A stretch of DNA of 64,000 nucleotides from Bacteroidota bacterium (GTDB lineage Bacteria > Bacteroidota > Bacteroidia > Bacteroidales > WCHB1-69): positions 2,820 to 66,819 of the forward strand of contig JAKIZI010000005.1 of the NCBI GenBank assembly GCA_022708105.1. Direction: 5' to 3'. The translations under genes were made by a program, and so were the position numbers. This document shows positions 1 to 17,215 of the stretch, piece by piece. The first letter of the stretch is position 1. Every line of letters starts with the position of its first letter. The notes below the pieces were generated by a model. The model saw only the letters and a list, made by a program, of their open reading frames with translations, had not been told where the DNA came from and did not search any database.

Positions 1-194
<194 letters not shown>

Positions 195-233
195 TCAACA
201 AGTAACGTAATTTACATATACCGATAATCCTGA

Positions 234-1253
234 TTATTGTTCAATCAAAAAATCAAATAAATCGACAAAATCATTTGTAAGGGACATATAAGATTTTCCG
301 GGACGATAATTCTTTATAGGAATTTGGGCAGAAGTAATCCATGCACTTTGGTTTTCAACTTCAGAAATCCGAACAAAAAAATCTTCCAATGAGGTATAAT
401 ATTGATAATGGAGAATTCCTCGGCTTGTATGGAGAGCGTCATCTTCAATCATCATCAAAACTCCGGCATCTACATAAGAAATTTTATTAATAATATGGAT
501 TGTTTTTTGATAGTCCAAATGATTGAGGTAGAGATGATGGGTTGCTAATTCTCCGGCTTGTCGATTGAAAACAGCTATCAACGGATTAAAATCATAATTA
601 TGCGGGACAAAAAGTCGTGTTACGGTACCGGCTGCCTTTCCGAAATATTGAATTACATCATCAAACAAAGCGGCCAACTCCATATCGGTCTCCTTTCCCG
701 TCAACAGAGCACTGCTGCATCTCTGAGGAAATTCAAAAGTCGCCCTTTTTGAGAAATAACGATTGTGGTATTCAAAAGATCTCTGTTTTGAAGACATGAC
801 CATACAATTACATTGACGAAAATCGTCTGTTCCAATAATTCTGTCTTCAAAATTCATTTCAGGAATATCGGGATTTTGAACCAAAAAAGTCACTATAGGA
901 TTCCGTAAAAATATTTTTGGAACTACGCTACGATGTCCAGCAAGAAAGATAAGCAGCAGGCTGATAATTTCGACCAATAAATCTTCATTATTCAGAAACA
1001 ATGCGACCAATTGGGCGTTGTTCCTATTAAAATTTTTCTGAGTCGAAAGCTCCTGACAGTATTCTAAAAATTCATCGGAAAGAATATGGGGAATTGCTTG
1101 CAAAGAAGTATAGCTAAATTCTGGTAACTTCCATTTATCATAACGCGATTGTTGATAAATTACCTCCTCCAAGACTTTATCCTTATCCGATAAAAGCCGC
1201 ACCAATTCGTTACGCCAATTTCTGACAACATCAACTCGCGAATGCAAGGTCAT
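234..1253 (-). CDS. hypothetical protein (339 aa), no family recognised
   Basis: Long uninterrupted ORF, with a CAAAAATA (reverse of TAnnTTTG) box 20 nt upstream. No motif I can name. Confidence 0.5.
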   Translation of the reverse strand: MTLHSRVDVVRNWRNELVRLLSDKDKVLEEVIYQQSRYDKWKLPEFSYTSLQAIPHILSDEFLEYCQELSTQKNFNRNNAQLVALFLNNEDLLVEIISLLLIFLAGHRSVVPKIFLRNPIVTFLVQNPDIPEMNFEDRIIGTDDFRQCNCMVMSSKQRSFEYHNRYFSKRATFEFPQRCSSALLTGKETDMELAALFDDVIQYFGKAAGTVTRLFVPHNYDFNPLIAVFNRQAGELATHHLYLNHLDYQKTIHIINKISYVDAGVLMMIEDDALHTSRGILHYQYYTSLEDFFVRISEVENQSAWITSAQIPIKNYRPGKSYMSLTNDFVDLFDFLIEQ

Positions 1254-1272
1254 TTTTTCTTAATTTTAAAAG

Positions 1273-1280
1273 CAAAAATA
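1273..1280 (-). promoter_or_regulatory. putative Bacteroidota -7 box (TAnnTTTG)
   Basis: Plus-strand CAAAAATA equals TATTTTTG on the minus strand, 20 nt upstream of the ATG at 1253. Confidence 0.4.
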
Positions 1281-1365
1281 CAAAAAAGTACTCAATCAGT
1301 AAATTAAAAAAACAAAAACCCTGTTCTTCAAAGATTCCATTCCTCTTTAGTATTAAAAAAACTTG

Positions 1366-1373
1366 TAAATTTG
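1366..1373 (+). promoter_or_regulatory. putative -7 box (TAnnTTTG) for ffh
   Basis: TAAATTTG, 52 nt upstream of the ffh ATG. Confidence 0.45.
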
Positions 1374-1424
1374 CACCCTGAAAATTAAGGATATTGTTCA
1401 TCAATTAAAAAACAGGGAATCATT

Positions 1425-2759
1425 ATGTTTGAGAGTTTAACGGACAGATTGGAACGGGCGTTTAAAGTTTTAAAAGGGCAAGGATACATCACCGAGATCA
1501 ATGTAGCCGAAACCATGAAAGAGGTTCGTAAAGCTTTATTGGATGCGGATGTCAGCTACAAAATTGCGAAAGATTTTACCGACGAAGTAAAGAAAAAAGC
1601 ATTGGGGATGAATGTTTTGAAAGCCGTTTCTCCAAGTCAATTGATGGTAAAAATCGCATACGATGAACTTATTGCGTTGATGGGGCGGACTGCGGAAGAC
1701 ATCAACATCAAGTCGAATCCTTCGATTATTCTGATGGCCGGTTTGCAAGGGTCGGGAAAAACGACTCATGCTGCCAAATTGGCCTATTTATTAAAAAATA
1801 AACGCGGTAAAAAGCCACTTTTGGTAGCTTGTGACGTCTATCGTCCTGCTGCAATAGACCAACTTAAAGTGTTGGGCGAGCAGATTCAAGTGGAGGTTTT
1901 TGCAGACACTGAATCCAAAAAGCCGGTTGAAATCGCCAAAAAGGCCATTGCACACGCCAAGACATGGGGGCACGATGTGGTGATAATAGATACGGCAGGT
2001 CGTTTGGCTATTGACCGTGAAATGATGGAAGAAATCGGCAACATCAAGTCGGCGGTAAACCCGCATGAAATCTTATTTGTTGTGGATGCCATGACCGGTC
2101 AAGATGCCGTAAACACAGCAAAGGCATTTAACGATAAACTTAATTTTGATGGCGTCATCCTGACCAAGATGGATGGTGATACCCGCGGAGGTGCGGCTCT
2201 TACCGTGAAAGCCGTGGTGAATAAACCCATCAAATTCATCGGATTGGGAGAGAAAATGGAAGCTTTGGATGTTTTCCACCCCGATCGTATGGCAGAACGT
2301 ATCCTCGGTATGGGAGATATCCGCTCCTTTGTGGAACGCGCCCAAGAGCAAATCGATGAAGAAGAAGCCGCAAAACTGCAAAAGAAATTAGCAAAAAATC
2401 AATTCGACTTTAACGATTTTTTGGCACAAATACATCAGATTAAAAAAATGGGAAATGTCAAAGATTTAATGTCGATGATTCCCGGAATGGGTAAAATGGT
2501 CAAAGATATGGACATTGACGAAAACTCATTCAAAGGTGTAGAAGCCATTATTTTATCAATGACTCCCGACGAGCGAAAAAACCCCGATATTCTTAACGGA
2601 AGCAGAAAAAAGAGAATTGCGGTGGGCAGTGGAAATAACATTCAAGAGGTAAATAAACTGGTAAAACAATTTGAAGATACCCGCAAAGTTATGAAAATGG
2701 TTAACAGCGGGAAAGCCAAGAATTTAATGCAGGGATTATCCCGTCCAGGCAAACGTTAA
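1425..2759 (+). CDS. ffh: signal recognition particle protein Ffh (SRP54 GTPase)
   Basis: 444 aa. GTPase motifs GLQGSGKTT, DTAGR and TKMDGD, plus a Met-rich M domain (MGNVKDLMSMIPGMGKM). Confidence 0.95.
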   Translation: MFESLTDRLERAFKVLKGQGYITEINVAETMKEVRKALLDADVSYKIAKDFTDEVKKKALGMNVLKAVSPSQLMVKIAYDELIALMGRTAEDINIKSNPSIILMAGLQGSGKTTHAAKLAYLLKNKRGKKPLLVACDVYRPAAIDQLKVLGEQIQVEVFADTESKKPVEIAKKAIAHAKTWGHDVVIIDTAGRLAIDREMMEEIGNIKSAVNPHEILFVVDAMTGQDAVNTAKAFNDKLNFDGVILTKMDGDTRGGAALTVKAVVNKPIKFIGLGEKMEALDVFHPDRMAERILGMGDIRSFVERAQEQIDEEEAAKLQKKLAKNQFDFNDFLAQIHQIKKMGNVKDLMSMIPGMGKMVKDMDIDENSFKGVEAIILSMTPDERKNPDILNGSRKKRIAVGSGNNIQEVNKLVKQFEDTRKVMKMVNSGKAKNLMQGLSRPGKR

Positions 2760-2804
2760 TTGAAAAAAACAGTCTTCAATAGTTAATATTTCGAAAAAAA
2801 ATAT

Positions 2805-2812
2805 TAACTTTG
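2805..2812 (+). promoter_or_regulatory. putative -7 box (TAnnTTTG)
   Basis: TAACTTTG, 70 nt upstream of the ATG at 2882. Confidence 0.4.
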
Positions 2813-2881
2813 CATCTCATAGCCTTACAAGATAAAGGTTATTTGTTCTTTTTTATTTTCCCCAATTAATATTAGTAAAAT

Positions 2882-4393
2882 ATGACACTAACTCCTGAAA
2901 TAATGCTTTTGGTCGGATCAATTCTCATTTTTTTTGGAATTGTCATCTCCAAAGCAGGTTTCAAGTTCGGAGTTCCGGTATTGCTTTTGTTTCTCCTTGT
3001 TGGGATGTTGGCCGGTAGCGACGGCTTGGGCATTCAATTTTCAAGTCCCGAAATTGCCCAAGGGATTGGAATGGTTGCGTTGTGTATTATCCTCTTTTCC
3101 GGGGGGATGGATACCAAATATTCAGATATTAAGCCAATCGTCAAAGAGGGTATTACTTTGGCGACTGTGGGCGTGTTGCTCACCGCCGTTATCACAGGTA
3201 CATTTATCTGGTGGATTACCAATTATACAAAACTGCAGGACTTTGTTCAATTCAGTTTTATCGAATCCATGTTGCTGGCATCGGTGATGTCCTCTACCGA
3301 TTCGGCATCCGTTTTTTCTATTCTCAGATCAAAAAGCATTCATTTAAAAGAGAATTTGCGTCCTTTGCTGGAATTAGAGAGTGGAAGTAATGACCCCATG
3401 GCCTATTTACTAACCATTCTCTTCATTCAAATGCTACTTCCGGGAGACTCTTTTGGTGCCGGTGAGGCGGTAGGGTTTTTCTTTTTACAATTCATAATCG
3501 GAGCCATTGCAGGATTGCTTTTAGGAAAACTAAGCGTATGGATTATTAACAAAATCAATCTCGCCAACGATGGGCTTTATATGGTTACCATGTTGGTAAT
3601 TACATTTTTCATCTTCTCGGCGACGACGCTAATCAAGGGAAATGGTTATTTAGCAGTTTATCTGGGCGGATTGGTGATTGGAAACGCCAAATTCGTTCAT
3701 AAAAAATCGATTATCAAATTTTACGACGGATTGACGTGGCTATTCCAGATTATCATGTTCCTGGTATTGGGATTGTTGGTCAATCCGAAGGAACTTCTTC
3801 CCATCGCTGTTTTGGGATTAATCATCGGAGCATTCATGGTGATTTTCTCCCGTCCTATTTCTGTCATGCTTTCGCTTCTTCCTTTTAGGAAACTATCGTT
3901 TAACGCAAGAGCATACGTTTCATGGGTGGGTTTGCGCGGGGCAGTCCCCATCATCTTTGCCACCTATCCTTTGGTCGCCAATATCCCCCATGCACGAGAG
4001 ATGTTCAATATTGTTTTCTTTATCACACTCGTTTCCCTCATTGTTCAGGGCAGTACGATCCCTGTGTTTGCAAAACTATCCAGTTTGTGCCATCGTGATG
4101 AAGAAACCAAAAAGAGCGATTTTGGGTTTGATATTGAGTTTCCCGAAGAAGTAAAATCTGCCATGTCGGAAGTAAAAATTACCCGAGATAGTCTCAAGAA
4201 CGGAACAAAACTCATGGAGATTCCGCTTCCCGATAAATCATTGGTGGTGATGGTCAAAAGAGGTACTCGCTATTTCATTCCGAGAGGCAATACCCATTTG
4301 GAAGAAAATGATATATTATTAATTATTACCGACGATGAAGCTGCCTTGAAACAGACTTTTAAAGATTTAGGGCTTAAGGGCTATAAAGTATAA
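2882..4393 (+). CDS. potassium/proton antiporter, NhaP2/CvrA-like (cation:proton antiporter domain plus C-terminal TrkA-C-like domain)
   Basis: 503 aa. Polytopic N-terminal region of about 400 aa with ESGSNDPMA and VSWVGLRGAVPI motifs typical of CPA1 exchangers, followed by a soluble C-terminal domain of about 90 aa. Confidence 0.8.
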   Translation: MTLTPEIMLLVGSILIFFGIVISKAGFKFGVPVLLLFLLVGMLAGSDGLGIQFSSPEIAQGIGMVALCIILFSGGMDTKYSDIKPIVKEGITLATVGVLLTAVITGTFIWWITNYTKLQDFVQFSFIESMLLASVMSSTDSASVFSILRSKSIHLKENLRPLLELESGSNDPMAYLLTILFIQMLLPGDSFGAGEAVGFFFLQFIIGAIAGLLLGKLSVWIINKINLANDGLYMVTMLVITFFIFSATTLIKGNGYLAVYLGGLVIGNAKFVHKKSIIKFYDGLTWLFQIIMFLVLGLLVNPKELLPIAVLGLIIGAFMVIFSRPISVMLSLLPFRKLSFNARAYVSWVGLRGAVPIIFATYPLVANIPHAREMFNIVFFITLVSLIVQGSTIPVFAKLSSLCHRDEETKKSDFGFDIEFPEEVKSAMSEVKITRDSLKNGTKLMEIPLPDKSLVVMVKRGTRYFIPRGNTHLEENDILLIITDDEAALKQTFKDLGLKGYKV

Positions 4394-7018: not shown

Positions 7019-10000
7019 ATGAGTAGTAACCATTTTATCACTAACAAAAAAGGAGAAAATTCCTTAGCTGACGTTATCAATCGTATTTTACCAACCAAAA
7101 CAAAAGCATTTGATGCACTTGTTGGATACTTTTACTTTAGCGGATTAACTGAAATATATAATAACCTTTCCGGAGTAAAAGTCCGAATTCTAGTAGGGCT
7201 AGATATGGAAAGAGAATTGATGAACAAAACTTCGGAAATTGATTTTTGGAACCAAGGACGAAAGCCGAATAAACTTACAATTCAAAAAGATTATTTTGAA
7301 TCACTAGTTAATCTTTCTAATACAAATTATTTTGATACGGAAGATCAGAAAAAAGCTTTTTCTATTTATTATCAGAAAATCAAAGATGGTTCTCTTGAAA
7401 TTCGTAAGACAAAAGAACCTTGTCATGCCAAAATGTATATTTTTAGTTTAAAAGACGAACTAAGTGAAGATGGAACAAAATTAGGAACATTGATAACAGG
7501 TTCAAGCAATTTGACTTTTAGTGGGTTACGCCGCCAAGACGAAATTAATGTCCGATTTGACGGAAATCCTGAAGTAGAAGAAGGAATGCAGATATTTGAA
7601 AATTTATGGAAAAAGGCAATTGTGATTGCTGATAAAGAAAATATTAAACCATTTGAAGATAATGTAATTAATAAAATTTGGATAGACAAACTTGTACCTC
7701 CCAATTTAGTATTTCTAAGAGTTTTACATGAATATTTTGCCATTGATTCAAGTAAACGCATCAGAACGCCATACGATATAACACATGGAAGGTTTCTAAA
7801 TCTTAAATATCAAGAAGATGCTGTCAGGTTAGCGATGCAAACCATTGAACAACATAATGGTGCAATTATAGCTGATGTAGTTGGATTAGGGAAAAGTATT
7901 ATTGCCGCAACAATTGCTAATAATTTGAATATAAGAACCATTATTATAACACCACCTCATCTTACAAAACAGTGGGAAGATTATCGTATTCAATTTAATA
8001 TCAATGCCATGGTTTTTAGTAGTGGCATTATAGAAAAAGCATATAATGAATATAATAATTTATCTCAAAATAGAGAAAAATGGCTAATTATTATTGATGA
8101 AGCACATAATTATCGGAATGAATATACAAAAGACTATTCTTTTTTAAAACAAATTTGCCAAGATAACAAAGTGTTATTGCTAACCGCCACCCCTTTTAAC
8201 AATAAACCGGAAGATATTTTTTCTATGGTTAAATTATTCCAAATTCCAGGCAAATCAACCATACAAACTGCCAGTAATTTAGGATATTATTTTCGTAACT
8301 GTATTTCCACATATAAGGATTTACGAAAATCTCAAAAAGAAAAAACTATATCCGAATCTGAATTGAAAAAAGAAACAGCCAACATTGCCAAGCGAATTCG
8401 AACAATTATACAACCTTTAGTAATAAGACGTTCTCGGATAGATCTTGAAAAAATTCCGGATTATAAAAAAGATTTGAAACGTCAAAAAATCGATTTTCCT
8501 GAAGTTGCTGACCCTATACTACTTGAATATCCTTTGGGTAATTTAGAAGATTTATACGCCCAAACGCTAAATCTTATTTCTCCCAAAAATACTATCAGGG
8601 AGACTAATAATAAAACAGAAAATCCAATTTCTTTTAAGGCAACTAGATATAAACCAATGCAATATATCAAAGAGAATTCTATCGCAGAATTACAACGTGA
8701 TATTGAAGAAGCTGGATTTGATTATGATTTATTTCGCGAGTCTCAACAGAATTTATCAAAGTTTATGCGATCTCTATTAGTTCGCAGATTTGAAAGTTCA
8801 CAAAGCGCATTTAAAACATCAATTAAAAATATGAGGAGAAATTGTGACAACATTCTTTTATGGGCTGAAAAACGCAATGCTGTCCCCATATATAAAAAAG
8901 GAAATCTGCCAGACATTAAAAGTTTGTATGATGAACCCAATGATGTCTATCCGGATCTTATTGAAGATATTGTTGGTGGCGAAATTAATAAATTGCAAGA
9001 AAAAGGACTCTTTGAAATCAAGACCAAGTATTTAAAAGAATCATTTTTTGAAGATTTAAAAGAAGATATTGCTATTCTAAAAAAAATTGAGAATGATTGG
9101 GCAAATGTAAGTTCTGACCCTAAAACAGAACATTTCATTGCCATAATAAAAGAAAAAATATTAAATGATCCCCAGCGTAAAATAATTGTTTTTACTGAAT
9201 TTGCTGATACGGCAAATTACTTAAGTGAACAACTCAAAAAATGCGACCTTCCGGTTTTTAAATACACCTCTGCTGATGCAAGCACATCAAATAAAGAAAA
9301 AATAAATTCTAATTTTGATGCAAGTTATTCTAAAAAAAATCAAAACAACGATTTTCAAATTCTTATTGCTACTGATGCTATTTCAGAGGGATATAATTTA
9401 CATCGAGCAGGTGCAATTTTCAACTATGATATTCCATATAATCCGACTCGTGTAATTCAACGTGTAGGACGTATCAATCGTATTAATAAACGAATGTTCG
9501 ATCAACTATTTATATTTAATTATTTCCCAACTGCTTTAGGAGAAGAAGAAACTCGTGGAAAAGAAATTTCAACTCTTAAAATGAATATGATACAAGCTCT
9601 TATGGGAGAAGATACTAAGATTTTAACTAAAGAAGAAGAATTACAATCATTTTTCAATGAACAATATCGAGAATTGATTAAAAAGAATGAAGAAGAATCT
9701 TGGAGTACAAAATACGAAATCAAGTTACAGCAAATGAGAGGAACACAAGAAATGAAAGAGGCTTTATCAATACCTCTACGTACTCGAATACGTCGTTTAA
9801 CTCATAAAGAACAAAAAGGGGTTTTAGTATTTGGGAAAAAAGGAAATAATTTTGTATTTAAAATCGGAAAAACTCCTTCTCTGATAGAAACTCTTGACCC
9901 TGAAAAAGCATTTTCTCTTTTTGAGCCAAACGAAGAGGATGAATTTTCATATAGTACTTCTGATAATTTTTATCCAATATACAATGCTGTTGAAAATGAA

Positions 10001-10360
10001 TTATTTAAACAAATTGATGATTCAAATATTGAAAAAAACAAACGTGATTCTATCGACAAAATTAAAATAATAAAAGATTCTGGTATTATTAAGGATGAAG
10101 AATATCTTGATGGTTTAATCGAGGCTTTAGAGTTAGAAGCATTAGAAGGATATGCCTTGAGAAAAATCAATAAACTTAAAGAAATTGATTTTCCAAAACT
10201 AAATGAAATTGTAAGTCGGGAATACTTGAATAAGATTTTAGATAAATCAAACCAGATCTCAAATGGCAAAGAAACATTAATTTTATCTGAAGAAATTGAA
10301 TCTGATTTTGCAAATCATAATTTGATGCATAATCAAAATCAAATAAGTATGAATATTTAA
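7019..10360 (+). CDS. PLD-family (HKD) nuclease domain fused to an SNF2-like SF2 helicase/translocase; putative restriction/effector subunit
   Basis: 1113 aa. Single HKD motif CHAKMYIF...LITGSSNLT (H136/K138, nt 7424..7513). SF2 motifs ADVVGLGKS (I), IIIDEAHNYRN (II, DEAH), LLTATPFNN (III) and RVIQRVGRINRI (VI). C-terminal extension of about 330 aa. Confidence 0.85.
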   Translation: MSSNHFITNKKGENSLADVINRILPTKTKAFDALVGYFYFSGLTEIYNNLSGVKVRILVGLDMERELMNKTSEIDFWNQGRKPNKLTIQKDYFESLVNLSNTNYFDTEDQKKAFSIYYQKIKDGSLEIRKTKEPCHAKMYIFSLKDELSEDGTKLGTLITGSSNLTFSGLRRQDEINVRFDGNPEVEEGMQIFENLWKKAIVIADKENIKPFEDNVINKIWIDKLVPPNLVFLRVLHEYFAIDSSKRIRTPYDITHGRFLNLKYQEDAVRLAMQTIEQHNGAIIADVVGLGKSIIAATIANNLNIRTIIITPPHLTKQWEDYRIQFNINAMVFSSGIIEKAYNEYNNLSQNREKWLIIIDEAHNYRNEYTKDYSFLKQICQDNKVLLLTATPFNNKPEDIFSMVKLFQIPGKSTIQTASNLGYYFRNCISTYKDLRKSQKEKTISESELKKETANIAKRIRTIIQPLVIRRSRIDLEKIPDYKKDLKRQKIDFPEVADPILLEYPLGNLEDLYAQTLNLISPKNTIRETNNKTENPISFKATRYKPMQYIKENSIAELQRDIEEAGFDYDLFRESQQNLSKFMRSLLVRRFESSQSAFKTSIKNMRRNCDNILLWAEKRNAVPIYKKGNLPDIKSLYDEPNDVYPDLIEDIVGGEINKLQEKGLFEIKTKYLKESFFEDLKEDIAILKKIENDWANVSSDPKTEHFIAIIKEKILNDPQRKIIVFTEFADTANYLSEQLKKCDLPVFKYTSADASTSNKEKINSNFDASYSKKNQNNDFQILIATDAISEGYNLHRAGAIFNYDIPYNPTRVIQRVGRINRINKRMFDQLFIFNYFPTALGEEETRGKEISTLKMNMIQALMGEDTKILTKEEELQSFFNEQYRELIKKNEEESWSTKYEIKLQQMRGTQEMKEALSIPLRTRIRRLTHKEQKGVLVFGKKGNNFVFKIGKTPSLIETLDPEKAFSLFEPNEEDEFSYSTSDNFYPIYNAVENELFKQIDDSNIEKNKRDSIDKIKIIKDSGIIKDEEYLDGLIEALELEALEGYALRKINKLKEIDFPKLNEIVSREYLNKILDKSNQISNGKETLILSEEIESDFANHNLMHNQNQISMNI

Positions 10361-10372
10361 AAAATATAATTT

Positions 10373-13300
10373 ATGATAGATTTTTCAAAACCTTACAACA
10401 GAGAAGATTTCCTCACGTTTTTAGAAGATGATTTGCTTCCGAATGATTTTGAAATTTGCGAAAAAGAGATACCTTTATCAGGTTTTCAACAAAGGTTTGT
10501 TTCATCAGTAACAAAATTAGGAACGTGTAAAAGCTTGGGGTTAGATGTTTTTGAAATGAAACATCAATCTTTACATGATGCACGTGTTGGAATCTCTAAA
10601 GATGCCTTTCAAATAATTCTTCATAAAAGTTTGAATAATAGAGCTTTGGTTATTTTTCTACCTCATCAAAATAATGAACAATATCGTTTTTCACTTATCC
10701 AAATTGAAACATCAATAGAAGATGATAAACTAAGAAGAAGTTATTCAAATCCACGCAGATATTCCTACATTCTAGGAAAAGGGACACCAACAACAACACC
10801 TACTCAATTTTTGGGAAAAGGAAGAATAAGAGCTACTGAAAAAAATTCATTATTCGATGATTTACAAAATCGTTTCTCTGTTGAAGTATTAACAAAACAA
10901 TTTTACAATGAATTGTTTGAATGGTATCAATGGGCTTTATCTCCACAAATGGGAATTACTTATCCTAATAATACAGATATTCTAAGCGATGACCGCCATA
11001 AAATTGAAGAGCATCTTATTCGTTTGATTACTAGAATTATGTTTGTTTGGTTCATTAAACAAAAAAAACTTGTTCCTGACAATCTGTTTGAAATTGACTT
11101 TTTAAAATCTATCTTGAAAGATTTTGATCCCCAAAGTAGAATTGTGGGTAATTACTACAATGCCATTTTGCAAAATCTATTTTTTGCAACACTTAATAAA
11201 GAAATTGGAAAAAGAGATTTTGCATATGATGAGGATGATCGCAATATGCGAAAAGAACATTATGGCATTAAAACTTTATATCGTTATAAAGAGATGTTTT
11301 CTATTTCAGATAATGAAATTGTTAAACTTTTCCAATCTGTTCCATTTCTTAATGGAGGATTATTTGAATGTCTTGATAAAGAAAAAGATGCTGATACAGA
11401 TCTAATCATTTATTACGACGGATTCAGCAGAAATAAAGATTTTTTTCCTAATACACAGACTTATAAGTGTAGAGCATTTATTCCTAATCAACTTTTTTTT
11501 GATGAACAAAAAGGATTAATCCCCTTACTTGCAAAATACAATTTTACTGTTGAAGAAAATTCACCAAATGATGCAGATGTAGCCCTTGATCCCGAATTAT
11601 TAGGAAAAGTTTTTGAAAATCTTTTAGGTGCTTATAATCCGGAAACGAAAGAGACTGCACGAAACCAATCCGGCTCTTTTTACACACCAAGAGAAATTGT
11701 TGATTATATGGTCAATGAATCGCTTATAGCCTATACCGAATCATCTTGTTCTAATTCTCCTAATAATATTCCAAAAGATATCTTTCGAGAATTATTTACG
11801 AAAGAAGATTTACCTGAATTTCTGGTTAATAGTCATGAATATTGCGAATTAATTGCCAATAAATTACGTTCAGCTAAAATATTAGATCCGGCCTGCGGTT
11901 CGGGCGCATTTCCAATGGGAATATTAAATAAAATGGTTCGTGTGTTAGAAAAATTGGATTGTAGAAAAGAAAAAACTGTTTATGCCCAAAAACTACATCT
12001 GATTGAAAATTGTATTTATGGGGTTGATATCCAAAATATTGCTGTTCAAATAAGCAAATTACGATTTTTTATTTCTTTAATATGCGAACAGGAAAAAGAT
12101 GAAACTAAGCCCAATTATGGAATTCCCACTCTTCCCAATTTGGAAACCAAATTTGTAGCAGCGAACACTTTAATTGACATTAAAAAACGTCCGGCTCAAG
12201 GTAATTTATTTGAAGACCCGGAAATAGAAATTACTCAAAAAGAGTTATTAGCAGTAAGAAAGCAACACTTTTCCGCAATCAATGCACAACAGAAAGCCGA
12301 ATGCCGTTTTAAGGATAAGCAATTACGCGAAAAATTGGCAAAATTACTCGCTGACAATGAAGAATACTCTCCTGACGATGCAATACAAATGGCCCATTGG
12401 AATCCTTATGACCAAAATGCCACTTCTCTGTTTTTTGATGCAGAGTGGATGTTCGGAGTCAATACAGGATTTGATATTGTAATTGGGAATCCGCCGTATA
12501 TTTCAACTAAAGGAGTAAAAGAAGATGATAAAAAAGCGCTTGAAAAGGAATTTGGCTTTGCTGACGATACGTATAACCATTTCTTTTTCAAAGGGAAACA
12601 ATTATTAAACACAAATGGAAACTTAACTTTTATCACTCCAAAAACATTTTGGACGACACAAACAAAACGTAATTTGCGAGATTTATTGCTCGATAATAAA
12701 ATCAATTATTTTTTCGATACGGCGAATCCGTTTGAGGCTGCAATGGTTGATGCATGCATTACTTCGTTTACAAATAAAACAGTAAAAAACAATGAAATTC
12801 GTTTTTTAGATGGAAGCAAAGATTTGTCTAATCCATTTAAATATTTCGTTTCTCAAGAGGTTTACCGCAACACACAGAACTCTGTAATTTTCAAACCAAC
12901 CCCCGAAAACATGCGTATTTACGAGAAATACGGTCAAAAGGTAAAAGAACTTTATGACAAATGGTGGGACAAAATCAAAACTTCGCGGGATATTGAAAAA
13001 AACAAAGAAGAACTTGAAGCCTATCGTAAGAGTTTGAAACCCGGTGATGTTGCTTTACTTGGTTGCTTAACAGAAGGTGGTCAGGGATTGGCTACTGCAA
13101 ACAACGGTAAATATATTGCCGTCAGAAAATCCACAAAATGGGCAAAAAATATTTTGGAATCACGTTCTAAAAAACTTGTCGAAGCCATACAAAAAAAGAA
13201 AATACAAGTGCAAGGTTTAGAGCAATTTGCTAATGTTACAGATTTTCTTACATCTTTGTCGGAAATTGAAATAGCAAAATTATTTGATGACCTCAAAGAA

Positions 13301-13987
13301 AAATATGGTCGTGATATTTTTGGTCAAGGTTATATTTATCGTTTAATAGACGATAATGAAGTCGCAAATGTAAATGAGTTAACGCAAGACGAAAAAGACA
13401 ATGGCATTGATACTTCCAAAAAGTATTATGTTCCTTACGATAAAGGTGATAAAGACGGAAACCGATGGTATCTTGAGACACCTTTTGCCATCGCTTGGAG
13501 CAAAGAAAATGTCCGTTTTTTGAAGACGAATTCAGGCAAAAAAGGTGAAGGCATGCCTGTCGTTAGAAATCCACAATTCTATTTTAGGGAGGGGCTCTGT
13601 TGGAATGATATAAATACTACATTTTTAAAATGTCGTTTAAAGGGTAAAAGTATTAATGACGTAAAAAGCATGAGTCTATTTCCCTTGTGTGATTTTGTTC
13701 CTATTTCCTTTATTGTTTGTGTTATAAATTCAACTTTTATAAGTTATTATGTTGATAATTATGTGAATAATACACAAACTTTTCAAATTAATGATGCAAG
13801 GCAACTTCCGATTGTTATTCCAACAAAAGAAACTTTGATAAGCTATAACAGAATTTTTGATGAAGCATATGCTGTTAAACAAGAGCTGTTTTGTAACAGC
13901 GTTAATATCAATGAGGATGAACAAAAATTAAACAGCATTCAAAAGAGAATAGATAAAATGGTTATACAATTATACGGTTTGGAGTAA
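10373..13987 (+). CDS. Eco57I-like gamma-class N6-adenine DNA methyltransferase with C-terminal TRD-like region (expressed copy of the shufflon)
   Basis: 1204 aa. Motif I DPACGSGAF (11885..11911) lies upstream of motif IV GNPPY (NPPY at 12488..12499). Starts 12 nt after the helicase stop. The C-terminal 135-160 aa are paralogous to two downstream cassettes. Confidence 0.85.
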   Translation: MIDFSKPYNREDFLTFLEDDLLPNDFEICEKEIPLSGFQQRFVSSVTKLGTCKSLGLDVFEMKHQSLHDARVGISKDAFQIILHKSLNNRALVIFLPHQNNEQYRFSLIQIETSIEDDKLRRSYSNPRRYSYILGKGTPTTTPTQFLGKGRIRATEKNSLFDDLQNRFSVEVLTKQFYNELFEWYQWALSPQMGITYPNNTDILSDDRHKIEEHLIRLITRIMFVWFIKQKKLVPDNLFEIDFLKSILKDFDPQSRIVGNYYNAILQNLFFATLNKEIGKRDFAYDEDDRNMRKEHYGIKTLYRYKEMFSISDNEIVKLFQSVPFLNGGLFECLDKEKDADTDLIIYYDGFSRNKDFFPNTQTYKCRAFIPNQLFFDEQKGLIPLLAKYNFTVEENSPNDADVALDPELLGKVFENLLGAYNPETKETARNQSGSFYTPREIVDYMVNESLIAYTESSCSNSPNNIPKDIFRELFTKEDLPEFLVNSHEYCELIANKLRSAKILDPACGSGAFPMGILNKMVRVLEKLDCRKEKTVYAQKLHLIENCIYGVDIQNIAVQISKLRFFISLICEQEKDETKPNYGIPTLPNLETKFVAANTLIDIKKRPAQGNLFEDPEIEITQKELLAVRKQHFSAINAQQKAECRFKDKQLREKLAKLLADNEEYSPDDAIQMAHWNPYDQNATSLFFDAEWMFGVNTGFDIVIGNPPYISTKGVKEDDKKALEKEFGFADDTYNHFFFKGKQLLNTNGNLTFITPKTFWTTQTKRNLRDLLLDNKINYFFDTANPFEAAMVDACITSFTNKTVKNNEIRFLDGSKDLSNPFKYFVSQEVYRNTQNSVIFKPTPENMRIYEKYGQKVKELYDKWWDKIKTSRDIEKNKEELEAYRKSLKPGDVALLGCLTEGGQGLATANNGKYIAVRKSTKWAKNILESRSKKLVEAIQKKKIQVQGLEQFANVTDFLTSLSEIEIAKLFDDLKEKYGRDIFGQGYIYRLIDDNEVANVNELTQDEKDNGIDTSKKYYVPYDKGDKDGNRWYLETPFAIAWSKENVRFLKTNSGKKGEGMPVVRNPQFYFREGLCWNDINTTFLKCRLKGKSINDVKSMSLFPLCDFVPISFIVCVINSTFISYYVDNYVNNTQTFQINDARQLPIVIPTKETLISYNRIFDEAYAVKQELFCNSVNINEDEQKLNSIQKRIDKMVIQLYGLE
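13511..13527. repeat. inverted repeat arm IR-1 (in the expressed MTase copy)
   Basis: GTCCGTTTTTTGAAGAC (encodes VRFLKT). Its perfect reverse complement is at 14767..14783. Confidence 0.9.
13577..13593. repeat. inverted repeat arm IR-2 (in the expressed MTase copy)
   Basis: TTCTATTTTAGGGAGGG (encodes FYFREG). Its perfect reverse complement is at 14719..14735. The match extends to 24/27. Confidence 0.9.
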
Positions 13988-13988
13988 T

Positions 13989-14016
13989 GAGGGATTTTGC
14001 TGGACAAATGTTTTAA
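13989..14016. repeat. inverted repeat arm IR-3 (cassette B side)
   Basis: GAGGGATTTTGCTGGACAAATGTTTTAA matches the reverse complement of 14696..14723 at 25/28. Confidence 0.7.
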
Positions 14017-14354
14017 ATCCACAAGCACGGCTTTTAAAAGCAAAAATGAAAGCAAAATCGGTAAATGACGTAGGTTCAATGGCATTATATTCAATGCTTT
14101 ACGTTACACCTAATTATTATTTTGTTGCATTACTAAATTCAGAATTATTGTTTGATTATTATCGTGATTATATAAATTGCACTGTAAATATTCAAATAAA
14201 CGATATTCGGCAGTTACCTATCATAATACCAACAGAAAAACAACTCAAAAAAATTGAAATAATTTTCCACAAGGCTGTGAGTTTGAAAAAAGACAGTAAT
14301 TCAATAATTGAACTCAATGAATTAGAAAATGAATTAGAAAAAGATATTAGAATA

Positions 14355-14369
14355 TTATATGAAATATAA
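14355..14369. repeat. 15-nt palindrome holding the stop codons of cassettes B and C
   Basis: TTATAT-GAA-ATATAA. TAA at 14367..14369 on the plus strand and TAA (reverse of 14355..14357) on the minus strand. Confidence 0.8.
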
Positions 14370-14695
14370 TTTTTGTATATATTTATCTATCTTATTTTGA
14401 ATAATTTCTAATTCTGAATCATTATCGTTGATGCGTAAAAGTATTGCTTGATCAAAAATATTTTTCACCTCTAATAATTCTTGTCTTGTTGGTACAACTA
14501 TTGGAATTAACTTGGCATCTCCAGTAGTACAATGCGAAGTTGAATTTACAAATGAATCAACATAGTAAGCAATTAAACGAGAGTTCATTACTGTTATCAT
14601 ATAAAATTCAGGAACATCTTCTGTTTCAGAAAAAAATGACATACTTTCTGTGCTATGTACCGTTGATTGTTTCTTTCTACATTTAATATGCGTGG

Positions 14696-14723
14696 TTAAA
14701 ACATTATTCCAACAAAATCCCTC
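14696..14723. repeat. inverted repeat arm IR-3 (cassette C side)
   Basis: Its reverse complement, GAGGGATTTTGTTGGAATAATGTTTTAA, matches 13989..14016 at 25/28. Confidence 0.7.
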
Positions 14724-14735
14724 CCTAAAATAGAA
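14719..14735. repeat. inverted repeat arm IR-2 (cassette C side)
   Basis: CCCTCCCTAAAATAGAA is the perfect reverse complement of 13577..13593. Confidence 0.9.
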
Positions 14736-14766
14736 CATATATCCTTGATAACGAGCCTTCGGGTCA

Positions 14767-14783
14767 GTCTTCAAAAAACGGAC
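14767..14783. repeat. inverted repeat arm IR-1 (cassette C side)
   Basis: GTCTTCAAAAAACGGAC is the perfect reverse complement of 13511..13527. It lies 12 nt from the recombinase stop codon. Confidence 0.9.
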
Positions 14784-14795
14784 GTTATTATAGAT

Positions 14796-15446
14796 TTAGT
14801 AAATTCCTCGTTTCCAACGTCCATTATTTGATTTTATTGGTTCGCGTACATTTGTATAAGCAAGGTATCGGTATAATGTTCCACGTGCTATTTTCAGGTG
14901 TTTTGCAATCAACGGAATACTTTCGCCTTGTGCAATTTTTCTGATAATATAATAGTGTTTTGTTGTACATTTCCGGTTTAGCGATTTGTTTCTAATGCCT
15001 TTTTGTCTGCCAATAATTTTCCCTTCCGCCTTTGCTCTCGCCAATGCCTCTTTTGTCCGCTGAGAAATCAAATTACGTTCAATTTCAGCCGAAAGTCCAA
15101 ATGCAAACGCTAAAACTTTGCTCGAAATGTCGCTACCAAGACGGTAATTGTCTTTAATCGTCCAAAGTTGGATTTCTTTTTTCATACAGGCGGAAAGTAC
15201 ATCCATAATCATAAACAGACTACGTCCTAAACGTGAAAGTTCGGAACAAATAAGAATGTCGTCCTTTTGTAGTTTTTTTAGCAATTTGCCCAATTGCCGT
15301 TTTTCAACGGCCTTAGTGCCGCTAATGGTTTCTTCAATCCATTCATCAATTTTCAAATTCTGTCGCTCACAAAAGTTATTAATTTCAAAGCGCTGGTTTT
15401 CTACTGTTTGTTTATCGCTGCTAACGCGAATGTATCCATAAATCAT
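14796..15446 (-). CDS. serine recombinase (resolvase/invertase family), candidate shufflon invertase
   Basis: MIYGYIRVSSDKQ catalytic-serine motif, SELSRLGRS, AEIERNLISQRTKEALA, and a C-terminal HTH (IAKHLKIARGTLYRYL). Start set at ATG 15446; the 29 upstream codons in the ORF track look spurious. Confidence 0.85.
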   Translation of the reverse strand: MIYGYIRVSSDKQTVENQRFEINNFCERQNLKIDEWIEETISGTKAVEKRQLGKLLKKLQKDDILICSELSRLGRSLFMIMDVLSACMKKEIQLWTIKDNYRLGSDISSKVLAFAFGLSAEIERNLISQRTKEALARAKAEGKIIGRQKGIRNKSLNRKCTTKHYYIIRKIAQGESIPLIAKHLKIARGTLYRYLAYTNVREPIKSNNGRWKRGIY

Positions 15447-15655: not shown

Positions 15656-16708
15656 ATGAATATAAATTTTTCACAACGGCTTAAAAATGCGAGGGTTATG
15701 AACGGACTCTCGATGGATGACCTATGTAAGAAATTGAATAATATAGTGTCAAAACAATCCATTTCCAAATATGAAAGCGGCAAAATGATGCCTGATAGTA
15801 CTGTGCTGATAGCCCTATCTAACGCACTTAACGTAAAAATAGATTATTTTTTTCGTCCACTATCCGTTTCATTGGGGAATATTGAATTTAGAAAAAAAAC
15901 TAAATTATCGAATCGTGAACTTTTAACTATCAAAGAAATTATTCGCGATAAGTTGGAACGATATGTGGAAGTTGAGGATATATGTAATATGATATCCGAT
16001 TTCTCTACTGATTTTTCTAATGTTACCGTGCATGGCGAAGATGATATATATGCTCTTGCAGCACGATTAAAGAACGAATGGCAATTGGGCGAAGATGGCA
16101 TCAATAATCTTATTGAAATATTAGAAGAACACCAAATTAAGGTTATAGAAATTAATGAAGTTGATAGTTTTGATGGATTAAGCGGATTGGTCGGAGCAAA
16201 AAAACCGATAATTGTAATCAACAAATCATTTACCGTTGAGAGAAAACGTTTTACCGCTTTGCACGAATTAGGACATATTTTATTGCATTTTGACGAGAAT
16301 TTAGATTCAAAAGTAAAAGAACATTTATGCCATTTGTTCGCAAGCGAAATGCTTATCTCCCGTGATGTATTTTTTAAAATGATTGGAAATTCAAGGAAAG
16401 ATATTTCATTGAATGAACTTCGCGACATACAAACTCAATTTGGGATATCTGTTGACGCCTTGATGTTTAAAGCAAAACAGTTGAATATCATTAGCGAACA
16501 GCGACACAAATATTTCTGTATGCAGAAAAATAAAAATACGGAATTTAAGCACAAAGTTATGCTGAGTACGGCAAAACCAGAAAACTCAAACCGATTTGAA
16601 CGCTTGGTATATCGTGCATTAGCCAGCGATATTATTTCTTTGTCAAAAGCGTCTGTATTACTCAATATTCCGTTAACAACAGTTCGTAACGAATTAAATT
16701 TGGTATAG
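15656..16708 (+). CDS. fused XRE-family HTH regulator / ImmA-IrrE-type zinc metallopeptidase
   Basis: 350 aa. N-terminal HTH (LSMDDLCKKLNNIVSKQSISKYESGKMMP). HEXXH motif HELGH at 16262..16276 in a COG2856-like C-terminal domain. Confidence 0.8.
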   Translation: MNINFSQRLKNARVMNGLSMDDLCKKLNNIVSKQSISKYESGKMMPDSTVLIALSNALNVKIDYFFRPLSVSLGNIEFRKKTKLSNRELLTIKEIIRDKLERYVEVEDICNMISDFSTDFSNVTVHGEDDIYALAARLKNEWQLGEDGINNLIEILEEHQIKVIEINEVDSFDGLSGLVGAKKPIIVINKSFTVERKRFTALHELGHILLHFDENLDSKVKEHLCHLFASEMLISRDVFFKMIGNSRKDISLNELRDIQTQFGISVDALMFKAKQLNIISEQRHKYFCMQKNKNTEFKHKVMLSTAKPENSNRFERLVYRALASDIISLSKASVLLNIPLTTVRNELNLV

Positions 16709-16711
16709 AAT

Positions 16712-17215
16712 ATGGATATTGTTGTAAGCGATACAAATATATTTATTGACTTATACTTAATTGGTTTGCTGAATGAATTTTTTGCATTGCCATTTCATAT
16801 CCACACAGTTGATTTTGTTATCAATGAAATAACCGAAGAAAAACAAAAAAGAACGATAACAAAGTTCCTTACAGCTAATAGGCTATTTGTAAAAAAATAT
16901 TCAATTATTGAATTACAAGAGCTTGTAAAATTAAATATCTCGTGTAAAGGGAATGTTTCCATAACAGATTGTGCAGTTTGAAAATATGCCAGAACCAATA
17001 ATTACACACTATTAACAGGCGATAAACAATTGCGTAATCAGGCAATAATGGATGGAGTTACTGTAGCTGGTTTAATATTTATTTTTGATCAATTAGTTAA
17101 ATGCAATATTATAACGCCACTTATTGCTGCCGAGAAATTAGAAAAATTATTACAAAATAACAAACGTTTACCCAAACGAGAAATAGAAGAACGCTTGTTA
17201 AAATGGAAGAAATAA
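16712..17215 (+). pseudogene. PIN-like (DUF3368/PIN_3-type) nuclease gene interrupted by one in-frame TGA
   Basis: ORFs 16712..16981 and 17030..17215 are in the same frame. Read through TGA 16979..16981 they give MDIVVSDTNIFIDL...SITDCAV*KYARTNNYTLLTGDKQLRNQA...VAGLIFIFDQL. This has the N-terminal acidic PIN motif and the LLTGD motif on either side of the stop. Confidence 0.6.

Follow-up and report, generated by a model that had tools for sequence, protein, structure and literature searches.

How does one methyltransferase gene come to be followed by spare copies of its own 3' end, and what would be gained by exchanging them? The question is raised by a locus in 64,000 nucleotides (nt) of DNA from a Bacteroidota bacterium (GenBank assembly GCA_022708105.1, contig JAKIZI010000005.1, positions 2,820 to 66,819 of the forward strand). 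This whole stretch is referred to as the window, and coordinates are counted from its first letter. In the window a large methyltransferase gene is followed by two partial, silent copies of its last part and by a gene for a serine recombinase. The locus is very probably a three-cassette inversion switch (shufflon) that exchanges the 3' end (the last 135-160 codons) of the gene for a PglX/MmeI-like N6-adenine methyltransferase, part of a two-gene system of defence akin to restriction-modification, with the adjoining Mpi-family invertase inverting the DNA at two nested sites and the methylated motif changing as a result. The reading is carried by the anatomy of the locus, by recombinant junctions found in nature, by the orbit of arrangements among relatives, by homology of the exchanged part to a recognition domain and by the family of the recombinase.

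Anatomy of the locus

The methyltransferase open reading frame (ORF; 10373..13987, + strand) encodes 1204 amino acids (aa) of the Eco57I/MmeI type, with matches to Pfam Eco57I, N6_Mtase and MmeI_Mtase and to the PADLOC model REase_MTase_IIG (3e-60), and its closest solved structures are BrxX/PglX, CamA and MmeI. The constant part of the gene (10373..13510, + strand) comprises the N-terminal region, the catalytic domain (Pfam Eco57I, 2e-30) and the first half of the recognition domain; a Pfam scan of residues 1-400 returned no domain. The second half of the recognition domain and the C-terminal helices, delimited by translation and profile alignment, form the body of cassette A, which occupies the expressed position (13594..13987, + strand). 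Cassette B (13989..14369, + strand) is silent, headless and without a start codon, and its frame begins 1 nt past the methyltransferase TAA. Cassette C is silent and inverted, with an open frame that runs from 14795 down to 14355 on the - strand and a body at 14355..14718. Both silent cassettes were recognized by their open frames, by a weak match to Pfam TaqI_C and by paralogy to the methyltransferase C-terminus, with 38-43% aa identity to the expressed copy. The blocks NVRFLKT, FYFREG(L/F)CW, SMS, LNS...YYVD and QLPIxIPT are common to all three cassettes and are separated by divergent stretches. An earlier note on this DNA, made from the letters alone, had described two silent paralogues of the last 135-160 codons, the conserved blocks that they share with the expressed copy and the opening of the cassette B frame just after the TAA, and all of these were borne out by the sequence and the cassette alignment.

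Cassettes B and C overlap tail-to-tail by 15 nt (14355-14369), where the codons of the conserved C-terminal ending (LY.I stop) form the self-complementary sequence TTATAT...ATATAA. The equivalent cassette junction in a related locus (L078, 8550-8591) is a perfect palindrome of 21+21 nt. The palindrome at the overlap could be a bidirectional terminator or the mere consequence of a conserved ending.

Inverted repeats and crossover sites

Each full head, the segment that precedes a cassette body, carries two sites and a linker between them. Site 1, GTCCGTTTTTTGAAGAC, encodes VRFLKT in the expressed copy (13511..13527, + strand) and recurs as a perfect 17-bp inverted repeat in the silent copy (14767..14783, - strand), inside a longer repeat (13508-13527 and 14767-14786) matched at 19/20 positions. 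Site 2, TTCTATTTTAGGGAGGG, encodes FYFREG in the expressed copy (13577..13593, + strand) and is likewise a perfect 17-mer with its silent counterpart (14719..14735, - strand), where it stands at the start of the inverted repeat 13577-13633/14679-14735; its GAGGG core lies at 13589-13593 and, on the complement, at 14719-14723. Between the sites the expressed head holds a 49-nt linker (NSGKKGEGMPVVRNPQ; 13528..13576, + strand), exchangeable for the 31-nt linker of the silent head (DPKARYQGYM; 14736..14766, - strand), which was delimited by translation and by the linkers of relatives. A third copy of site 2, the 11-nt headless site GAGGGATTTTG (13989..13999, + strand), lies directly past the stop codon of cassette A, within an inverted repeat that pairs cassette B with cassette C (13989-14016 and 14696-14723; 25/28 positions matched).

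The two perfect 17-bp repeats, and the 25/28 match between cassettes B and C, were recovered by a repeat finder exactly where the earlier note had placed them. Its expectation that inversion would leave an intact chimeric gene also held, as in silico recombinants at each site gave uninterrupted ORFs of 1188-1198 aa. Such repeats are rare by chance: of 1000 first-order Markov sequences simulated for the 2.6-kb region, 0.2% held a perfect inverted repeat of >=17 nt, and in none was the second-longest repeat above 14 nt, against the two 17-mers observed. No further copy of site 1 or site 2 was found in the 64-kb window at <=3 mismatches, and because of this the invertase is suggested to act locally. 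Site 1 shows partial dyad symmetry, with an A-tract arm and a T-tract arm, and we take it to resemble the hix and gix sites. On this assumed analogy to hix, the candidate 2-nt crossovers, each beside a T-tract half-site (SGNTTTTKG), would be TC at 13512-13513 and AG at 13590-13591, 13990-13991 and 14721-14722.

Natural recombinant junctions

Searching public assemblies for the exact recombinase protein led to three short contigs from three samples, all of the same species and 98-100% identical to the window, and two of these contain joins that the window does not. Contig L001 (SRR25621791) follows the window from 15945 to 14696 and then continues from 13989 to 14060, so that the head of cassette C is joined to the body of cassette B, with the crossover within GAGGGATTTTG. 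Contig L003 (JGI 3300010355) follows the window from 15573 to 14703 and then from 13577 to 13713, which places the cassette A body behind the cassette C head, with the crossover within TTCTATTTTAGGGAGGG. The identity shared at these junctions is 11-17 nt, which is shorter than typical assembler k-mers, and the joins must therefore occur in reads. The third contig, L002 (SRR17648133), breaks off at 14767, precisely on the final base of the outer 17-mer. Were both continuations present in the sample, the assembly graph would fork at this base, and the end of this contig is a hint in that direction. DNA inversion at the locus is thus documented by a B/C junction and an A/C junction of the kind that had been predicted from the repeats, and the proposed two-step loading of cassette B into the expressed position is consistent with L001 and with the cassette permutations in relatives.

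Two further look-ups gave less. The ORFs inside cassettes B and C had no exact-protein match in public records, and the protein encoded upstream of the methyltransferase (a PLD-SNF2 fusion, see below) led to three short contigs that all end inside the methyltransferase before the switch. At the other end of the locus, the match of L003 to the window is lost upstream of the invertase (L003 1-95; beyond 15573), so the flank differs between strains.

Relatives and the orbit of arrangements

Metagenome contigs and species-representative genomes were scanned for both 17-mers separated by 25-55 nt. This yielded 68 metagenome loci, mostly from the human gut, and 6 genome loci, from Alistipes putredinis, an Alistipes sp., a Muribaculaceae genome, a rumen Bacteroidales metagenome-assembled genome (MAG), a Bacillota-labelled MAG and another MAG that bears the label Bacteroides and shares 95% identity with A. 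putredinis. Over the constant part of the methyltransferase gene these relatives are ~75% identical to the window, and the layout is alike: constant region, head, body, headless body, inverted body with its head, invertase. Neither linker (31 nt or 49 nt) and no body type is confined to one side, each being seen next to the methyltransferase and next to the invertase. Across 110 expressed homologues two linker types are combined with at least five recurring body types, every combination being seen.

These permutations follow a strict rule. In a model of inversion among three GAGGG-core sites, two sites lie in heads, and the third has no head and stays attached to the 3' end of one cassette. 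From this model exactly 4 body arrangements are expected, as a closed set, and the cassette with the headless site should never be in the middle. All of the complete three-cassette loci in Alistipes relatives fit this prediction (32/32, zero exceptions), and for one cassette set all 4 predicted states were found, in 4, 7, 2 and 2 loci. As the model has it, the headless site in relatives is invariably found behind the stop codon of one given cassette. Polymorphisms left of GAGGG go with the head or with the tail of the preceding cassette, and the base to its right goes with the body, which places the crossover in these 5 nt, in agreement with L001 and L003. Of 80 heads, 7 lie 5-44 nt from a contig end, a proximity that suggests assembly breaks from mixed orientations.

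Two more distant loci, L078 and L080, were found through protein similarity and independently of the site DNA. In each, a methyltransferase is accompanied by a silent inverted cassette of ~140 aa, by a Resolvase gene and, further downstream, by a PLD-SNF2 gene. The inverted repeats of both occupy the two protein positions known from the window but consist of different DNA (e.g., GTCCGGTTTCTTAAAAC), and their invertases are 67-69% identical to that of the window with a diverged C-terminal DNA-binding region, so that sites and enzyme appear to co-vary. An Ornithobacterium homologue (L079) has no cassette. Both L078 and L080 are sited in defence islands: genes for a Piwi-domain protein (prokaryotic Argonaute) and a deaminase-domain protein lie upstream in L080 and AbiEii lies between its invertase and PLD-SNF2 genes (1-4053 and 9855-11519), and an OLD-TOPRIM ATPase and a UvrD helicase, a Gabija-like pair, lie upstream in L078 (869-4892).

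It should be noted that individual records among the relatives have peculiarities of their own. The Bacillota-labelled MAG (L075; JAIKVQ010000182.1) holds the methyltransferase, the cassettes and the invertase, with both 17-mers identical to those of Bacteroidota loci, and represents either horizontal transfer across phyla or a mis-binned contig. In an Alistipes-like contig (L022, 5749-9474) the methyltransferase appears as two ORFs of 764 and 406 aa, which may reflect a frameshift, a pseudogene or an assembly error. Homologues from Weeksella, Empedobacter and Paludibacter are labelled 'partial' by NCBI at 1035-1076 aa, where the variable cassette begins, and those isolate assemblies therefore probably break at the invertible region.

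The recombinase

The recombinase gene (14796..15446, - strand) lies outside the invertible segment and ends 12 nt from the outer repeat. It encodes a serine DNA invertase of 216 aa that begins with MIYGYIRVSSDKQ and contains SRLGRS, with a Resolvase catalytic domain bearing the N-terminal serine (Pfam Resolvase, 3.7e-35) and a C-terminal helix-turn-helix (HTH; Pfam HTH_7). Residues 1-202 of the 216 match NCBIfam NF009949, the equivalog model of the Mpi family, at 319.1 bits against a cut-off of 272, which confirms the serine recombinase that the earlier note had recognized beside the repeats and assigns it to a family. Orthologues with 67-76% aa identity lie beside like methyltransferase/cassette loci in Alistipes, in Muribaculaceae and in L078 and L080, and the adjoining Mpi-family invertase presumably catalyses all of the crossovers. 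To our knowledge, the site requirements of Mpi-family serine invertases are poorly defined. At 14793-14798 the stop codon of the gene (14796-14798) is followed, in frame and on the same strand, by cassette C, and transcription of the invertase would consequently run antisense into the methyltransferase cassettes.

What the cassettes exchange

A profile of the C-terminal region, built from 18 sequences with the three window variants included, matched residues 750-858 of Escherichia coli BrxX (9ewz_C; E = 8.8e-9) and residues 735-874 of Salmonella PglX (8c45_A; E = 2.5e-5). In the structural literature the recognition domain spans residues 651-837 of BrxX and 662-849 of PglX, and specificity has been changed experimentally at BrxX G785/N823 and at PglX T802/S838, the PglX pair being equivalent to MmeI A774/R810. 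In the alignment of cassette A the specificity positions fall in NDV[K]SMS and NNTQ[T]F. The equivalent of BrxX G785 and PglX T802 is K in cassette A, G in B and E in C, and the equivalent of BrxX N823 and PglX S838 is T in A, N in B and H in C. By this alignment the cassettes replace the second recognition subdomain, with its base-contacting positions, together with the terminal helices, and leave the first subdomain constant. The claim in the earlier note that the swapped part is the recognition module is accordingly upheld in that the profile match covers both specificity residues, and narrowed in that the exchange takes in the terminal helices and the second half of the domain, not the whole domain. 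A Foldseek search with an AlphaFold model confirmed only the overall relationship to PglX/BrxX, CamA and MmeI.

Proposed mechanism and alternative explanations

In the mechanism that we propose, two nested sites, each present in inverted copies, would be the substrates of the Mpi-family invertase, which would invert the DNA lying between such copies. Site 1 (GTCCGTTTTTTGAAGAC) would be used through its one copy in the expressed head and one in the silent head, and site 2, with its GAGGG core, through copies in both heads and through the third, headless copy that remains at the 3' end of cassette A. Cassette bodies would be exchanged by inversion at site 2, and inversion at site 1 would exchange the 10- or 16-residue linker too, such that 4 body arrangements and 2 linker states would make 8 DNA configurations, encoding 6 full-length methyltransferases (3 bodies x 2 linkers). 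The methyltransferase and the adjoining PLD-SNF2 nuclease-helicase would work as a two-gene defence system. As each body carries base-contacting positions, switching is expected to alter which motif is methylated and, probably, which is restricted, with the PLD-SNF2 protein expected to read the same specificity as the methyltransferase. Only tentatively can this be drawn out to its full extent, in which one Mpi-family invertase acts on two sequence-unrelated classes of nested sites (one hix-like; the other asymmetric around GAGGG, with one copy a single half-site), linker and subdomain are shuffled independently into 6 proteins and 8 states, and methylation and PLD-SNF2 restriction are retargeted together. 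If this is true, the joint retargeting of methylation and restriction would need a safeguard against self-restriction after each switch.

Several observations weigh against a switch of specificity driven by the adjoining invertase, and they touch its history, its enzyme and its effect. The alternative junctions each come from a different sample, and the contig breaks right after the sites (L002; 7/80 heads) only hint that variants coexist within a sample. Cassettes that are decaying fragments of a duplicated gene, with junctions that are fixed strain differences or assembly chimeras, would agree with such a separation by sample, yet this explanation is very improbable: open frames and conserved structural motifs are kept in all cassettes, a dedicated invertase is conserved alongside, relatives show the 4-state orbit exactly and the 11-17 nt of junction identity are too short for de Bruijn chimeras. 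The same class of locus has, moreover, been confirmed by long reads in Bacteroides ovatus (Milman, Yelin & Kishony, NAR 2023; PMC9881135). As to the enzyme, site 2 lacks the obvious dyad symmetry expected of the dimer site of a serine recombinase, and the headless site shares only its right half; the asymmetry means that another recombinase could act at site 2. The invertase would then serve only site 1, whose partial dyad symmetry looks hix- or gix-like if the comparison drawn above is apt, and the asymmetric GAGGG sites, headless copy included, would be left to an enzyme encoded elsewhere, e.g., a tyrosine invertase, or to short-homology recombination. Inversions that persisted after deletion of a nearby recombinase (PMC9881135) speak for such a division of labour. 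It is nonetheless unlikely, as site 2 crossovers are confined to the 5-nt core in dozens of independent loci, which is typical of site-specific and not of homology-driven recombination. An Mpi-like gene also always lies beside these loci, whereas a second recombinase gene is conserved beside none of them, and the T-tract half-site SGNTTTTKG occurs in similar form in both classes of site.

The change of methylation motif with the cassette is predicted from the homology of the exchanged part to the recognition domain. Pfam TaqI_C, which is a distant model, matched cassettes B (E = 0.002) and C (E = 0.006) at 17-19 bits, below its cut-off of 26.5, and did not match cassette A. An AlphaFold2 prediction of residues 400-1204, made with 72 homologues, reached a predicted local distance difference test (pLDDT) score of 72.5 overall and <40 in the variable region, probably because the alignment mixes cassette types. 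With AlphaFold unreliable in the variable region and TaqI_C below threshold, it is the profile match to solved structures that carries the domain assignment, and the profile and structure searches named in the earlier note as a check on the swapped segment thus came out in favour with BrxX and fell short with TaqI_C. An exchange that alters something other than DNA specificity, such as the interaction with the PLD-SNF2 protein or on/off activity exerted through the C-terminal helices, draws on two facts: the swapped segment includes ~60 residues of C-terminal helices that vary among cassettes, and only half of the recognition domain is exchanged. We consider this quite improbable, given that the equivalents of the BrxX/PglX specificity residues lie inside the swapped part and differ among the cassettes, and that the bodies form discrete recurring types, as recognition domains do.

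The partner gene and the chromosomal setting

The gene upstream of the methyltransferase (7019..10360, + strand), separated from its start codon by 12 nt, encodes a 1113-aa fusion of a PLD (HKD) nuclease with an SNF2 helicase, with matches to Pfam PLDc_2, SNF2-rel_dom and Helicase_C. The protein matches the PADLOC model C3a139 'HKD+Snf2' over nearly its full length (6.7e-31) and DrmD (4e-36), and it is presumed to be the restriction or effector partner of the methyltransferase. Because the PLD-SNF2 protein is encoded by a separate gene, a nuclease supplied in trans is suggested.

The pair was compared with known families of defence system that hold related proteins. For BREX, the methyltransferase scored 114 bits with NF033452 (PglX) against a cut-off of 500, and brxA/B/C, pglZ and brxL are absent at the locus. 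For Class 1 DISARM, the PLD-SNF2 protein scored 160 bits with the NCBIfam DrmD model against a cut-off of 610, and a YprA/DUF1998 gene is absent at the locus. For BREX-related type 2 / MANTIS (Gao_RL), only two genes lie between gcvH and the cassettes, and the DUF499 AAA+ ATPase and DUF3780 genes are absent at the locus. With the family models far below their cut-offs and the defining genes absent, the pair is not BREX, DISARM or BREX-related/MANTIS.

The island is set in the chromosome with pyrH-frr-gcvH upstream and housekeeping genes downstream, and the interval from gcvH to the cassettes holds the two genes only. Divergent from the invertase (15656-16981) lies a gene for a 350-aa protein with HTH_3 and Peptidase_M78 domains (ImmA/IrrE-like), which matches PADLOC RmrA (5.6e-42) and, below cut-off, the NCBIfam spr1629 antitoxin family. 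It is followed by an ORF of 89 aa without a family match, and candidate roles here are those of a toxin-antitoxin module, a defence module or a regulator of the island.

Implications

If the methylated motif changes with the cassette, one clone could present several methylation, and probably restriction, specificities as a hedge against phages, and switching methylation may also change gene regulation. The locus and its relatives amount to a natural set of interchangeable recognition subdomains, with variable positions aligned to the residues that have been engineered in BrxX/PglX, and pairing each cassette type with its motif would help to decode or redesign the specificity of the MmeI/BrxX class. 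With three GAGGG-core sites and two outer sites, the locus also offers a compact and fully mapped substrate for Mpi-family invertases. There is a caveat for assembly as well, namely that these loci are points of breakage or disagreement in gut Bacteroidales and Alistipes assemblies.

Comparison with known systems

The mechanical counterparts of the switch are the Min system of plasmid p15B and the related Gin, Cin and Hin systems. These combine a small serine invertase with a C-terminal HTH and several short crossover sites, and they swap the C-terminal parts of one expressed gene among silent cassettes, the targets being phage tail-fibre or flagellin genes. The Min/Gin/Cin/Hin enzymes depend on Fis and an enhancer. 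The window differs from them in having a Bacteroidales recombinase of the Mpi family and a methyltransferase as the target.

Other phase-variable methyltransferases share the outcome and differ in the means. Cj0031 of Campylobacter jejuni is, like the window enzyme, a phase-variable methyltransferase of the Type IIG class; it is turned on and off through a poly-G tract and is not known to change its specificity by cassette exchange. In Type I hsdS systems (Streptococcus pneumoniae SpnD39III/ivr with PsrA, and a phase-variable Bacteroides fragilis Type I restriction-modification system), as in the window, silent recognition cassettes are inverted into one expressed gene, and several methylation specificities within one clone are the result there and the predicted result here. 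The target in those systems is a separate HsdS subunit, what is exchanged is a whole recognition domain or a half-subunit, and pneumococcus uses a tyrosine recombinase. The window locus, in contrast, exchanges only the second subdomain of a recognition domain fused into a single-chain methyltransferase, and its recombinase is a serine invertase.

Inversion of pglX in BREX type 1 (Lacticaseibacillus rhamnosus NC_013198.1; PMC9881135) is also comparable, as the methyltransferase is homologous, the recognition domains align and the recognition region is changed by inversion. In that gene the variable part lies in mid-protein, and two nested inversions are needed, with unstable one-inversion intermediates (PMC9881135). 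The recognition module of the window lies at the C-terminus, and every inversion consequently gives a complete ORF, unlike in BREX pglX.

The closest comparison is to programmed inversions in Cj0031-like Type II methyltransferases with a PLD-SNF gene, which were confirmed by long reads (PMC9881135). In that study, proteins with an 'Eco57I RM methylase domain' were 16-fold enriched among inversion targets, with PglX among the most enriched, and Mpi-family serine invertases were 16-fold enriched among the neighbours of targets. The PLD+SNF gene lies immediately upstream in Bacteroides ovatus CP083813.1 (5322008-5329826) and downstream in CP044495.1. Features of the class that are seen at the window are a large Type II N6-adenine methyltransferase, a PLD + SNF2 neighbour, and repeats that overlap the gene and a partial inverted paralogue. 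Both the B. ovatus locus and the window come from Bacteroidota and have a large Type II methyltransferase adjoining a PLD+SNF gene, inverted repeats overlapping the 3' part of the gene and partial silent copies nearby; the window enzyme is likened to the B. ovatus and Cj0031 methyltransferases by gene layout and description. The combination of methyltransferase, PLD-SNF2 protein and programmed inversion was thus already published in 2023 (PMC9881135), and the claim of newness in the earlier note is incorrect. The window locus is best regarded as a well-resolved further case of the switch described then, and the advance is a modest one, in detail and not in kind. Beyond the main text of PMC9881135, the present analysis adds the nested two-site heads, the headless third site, the four-state orbit, the 5-nt crossover core and the mapping of the cassettes onto the BrxX/PglX specificity residues.

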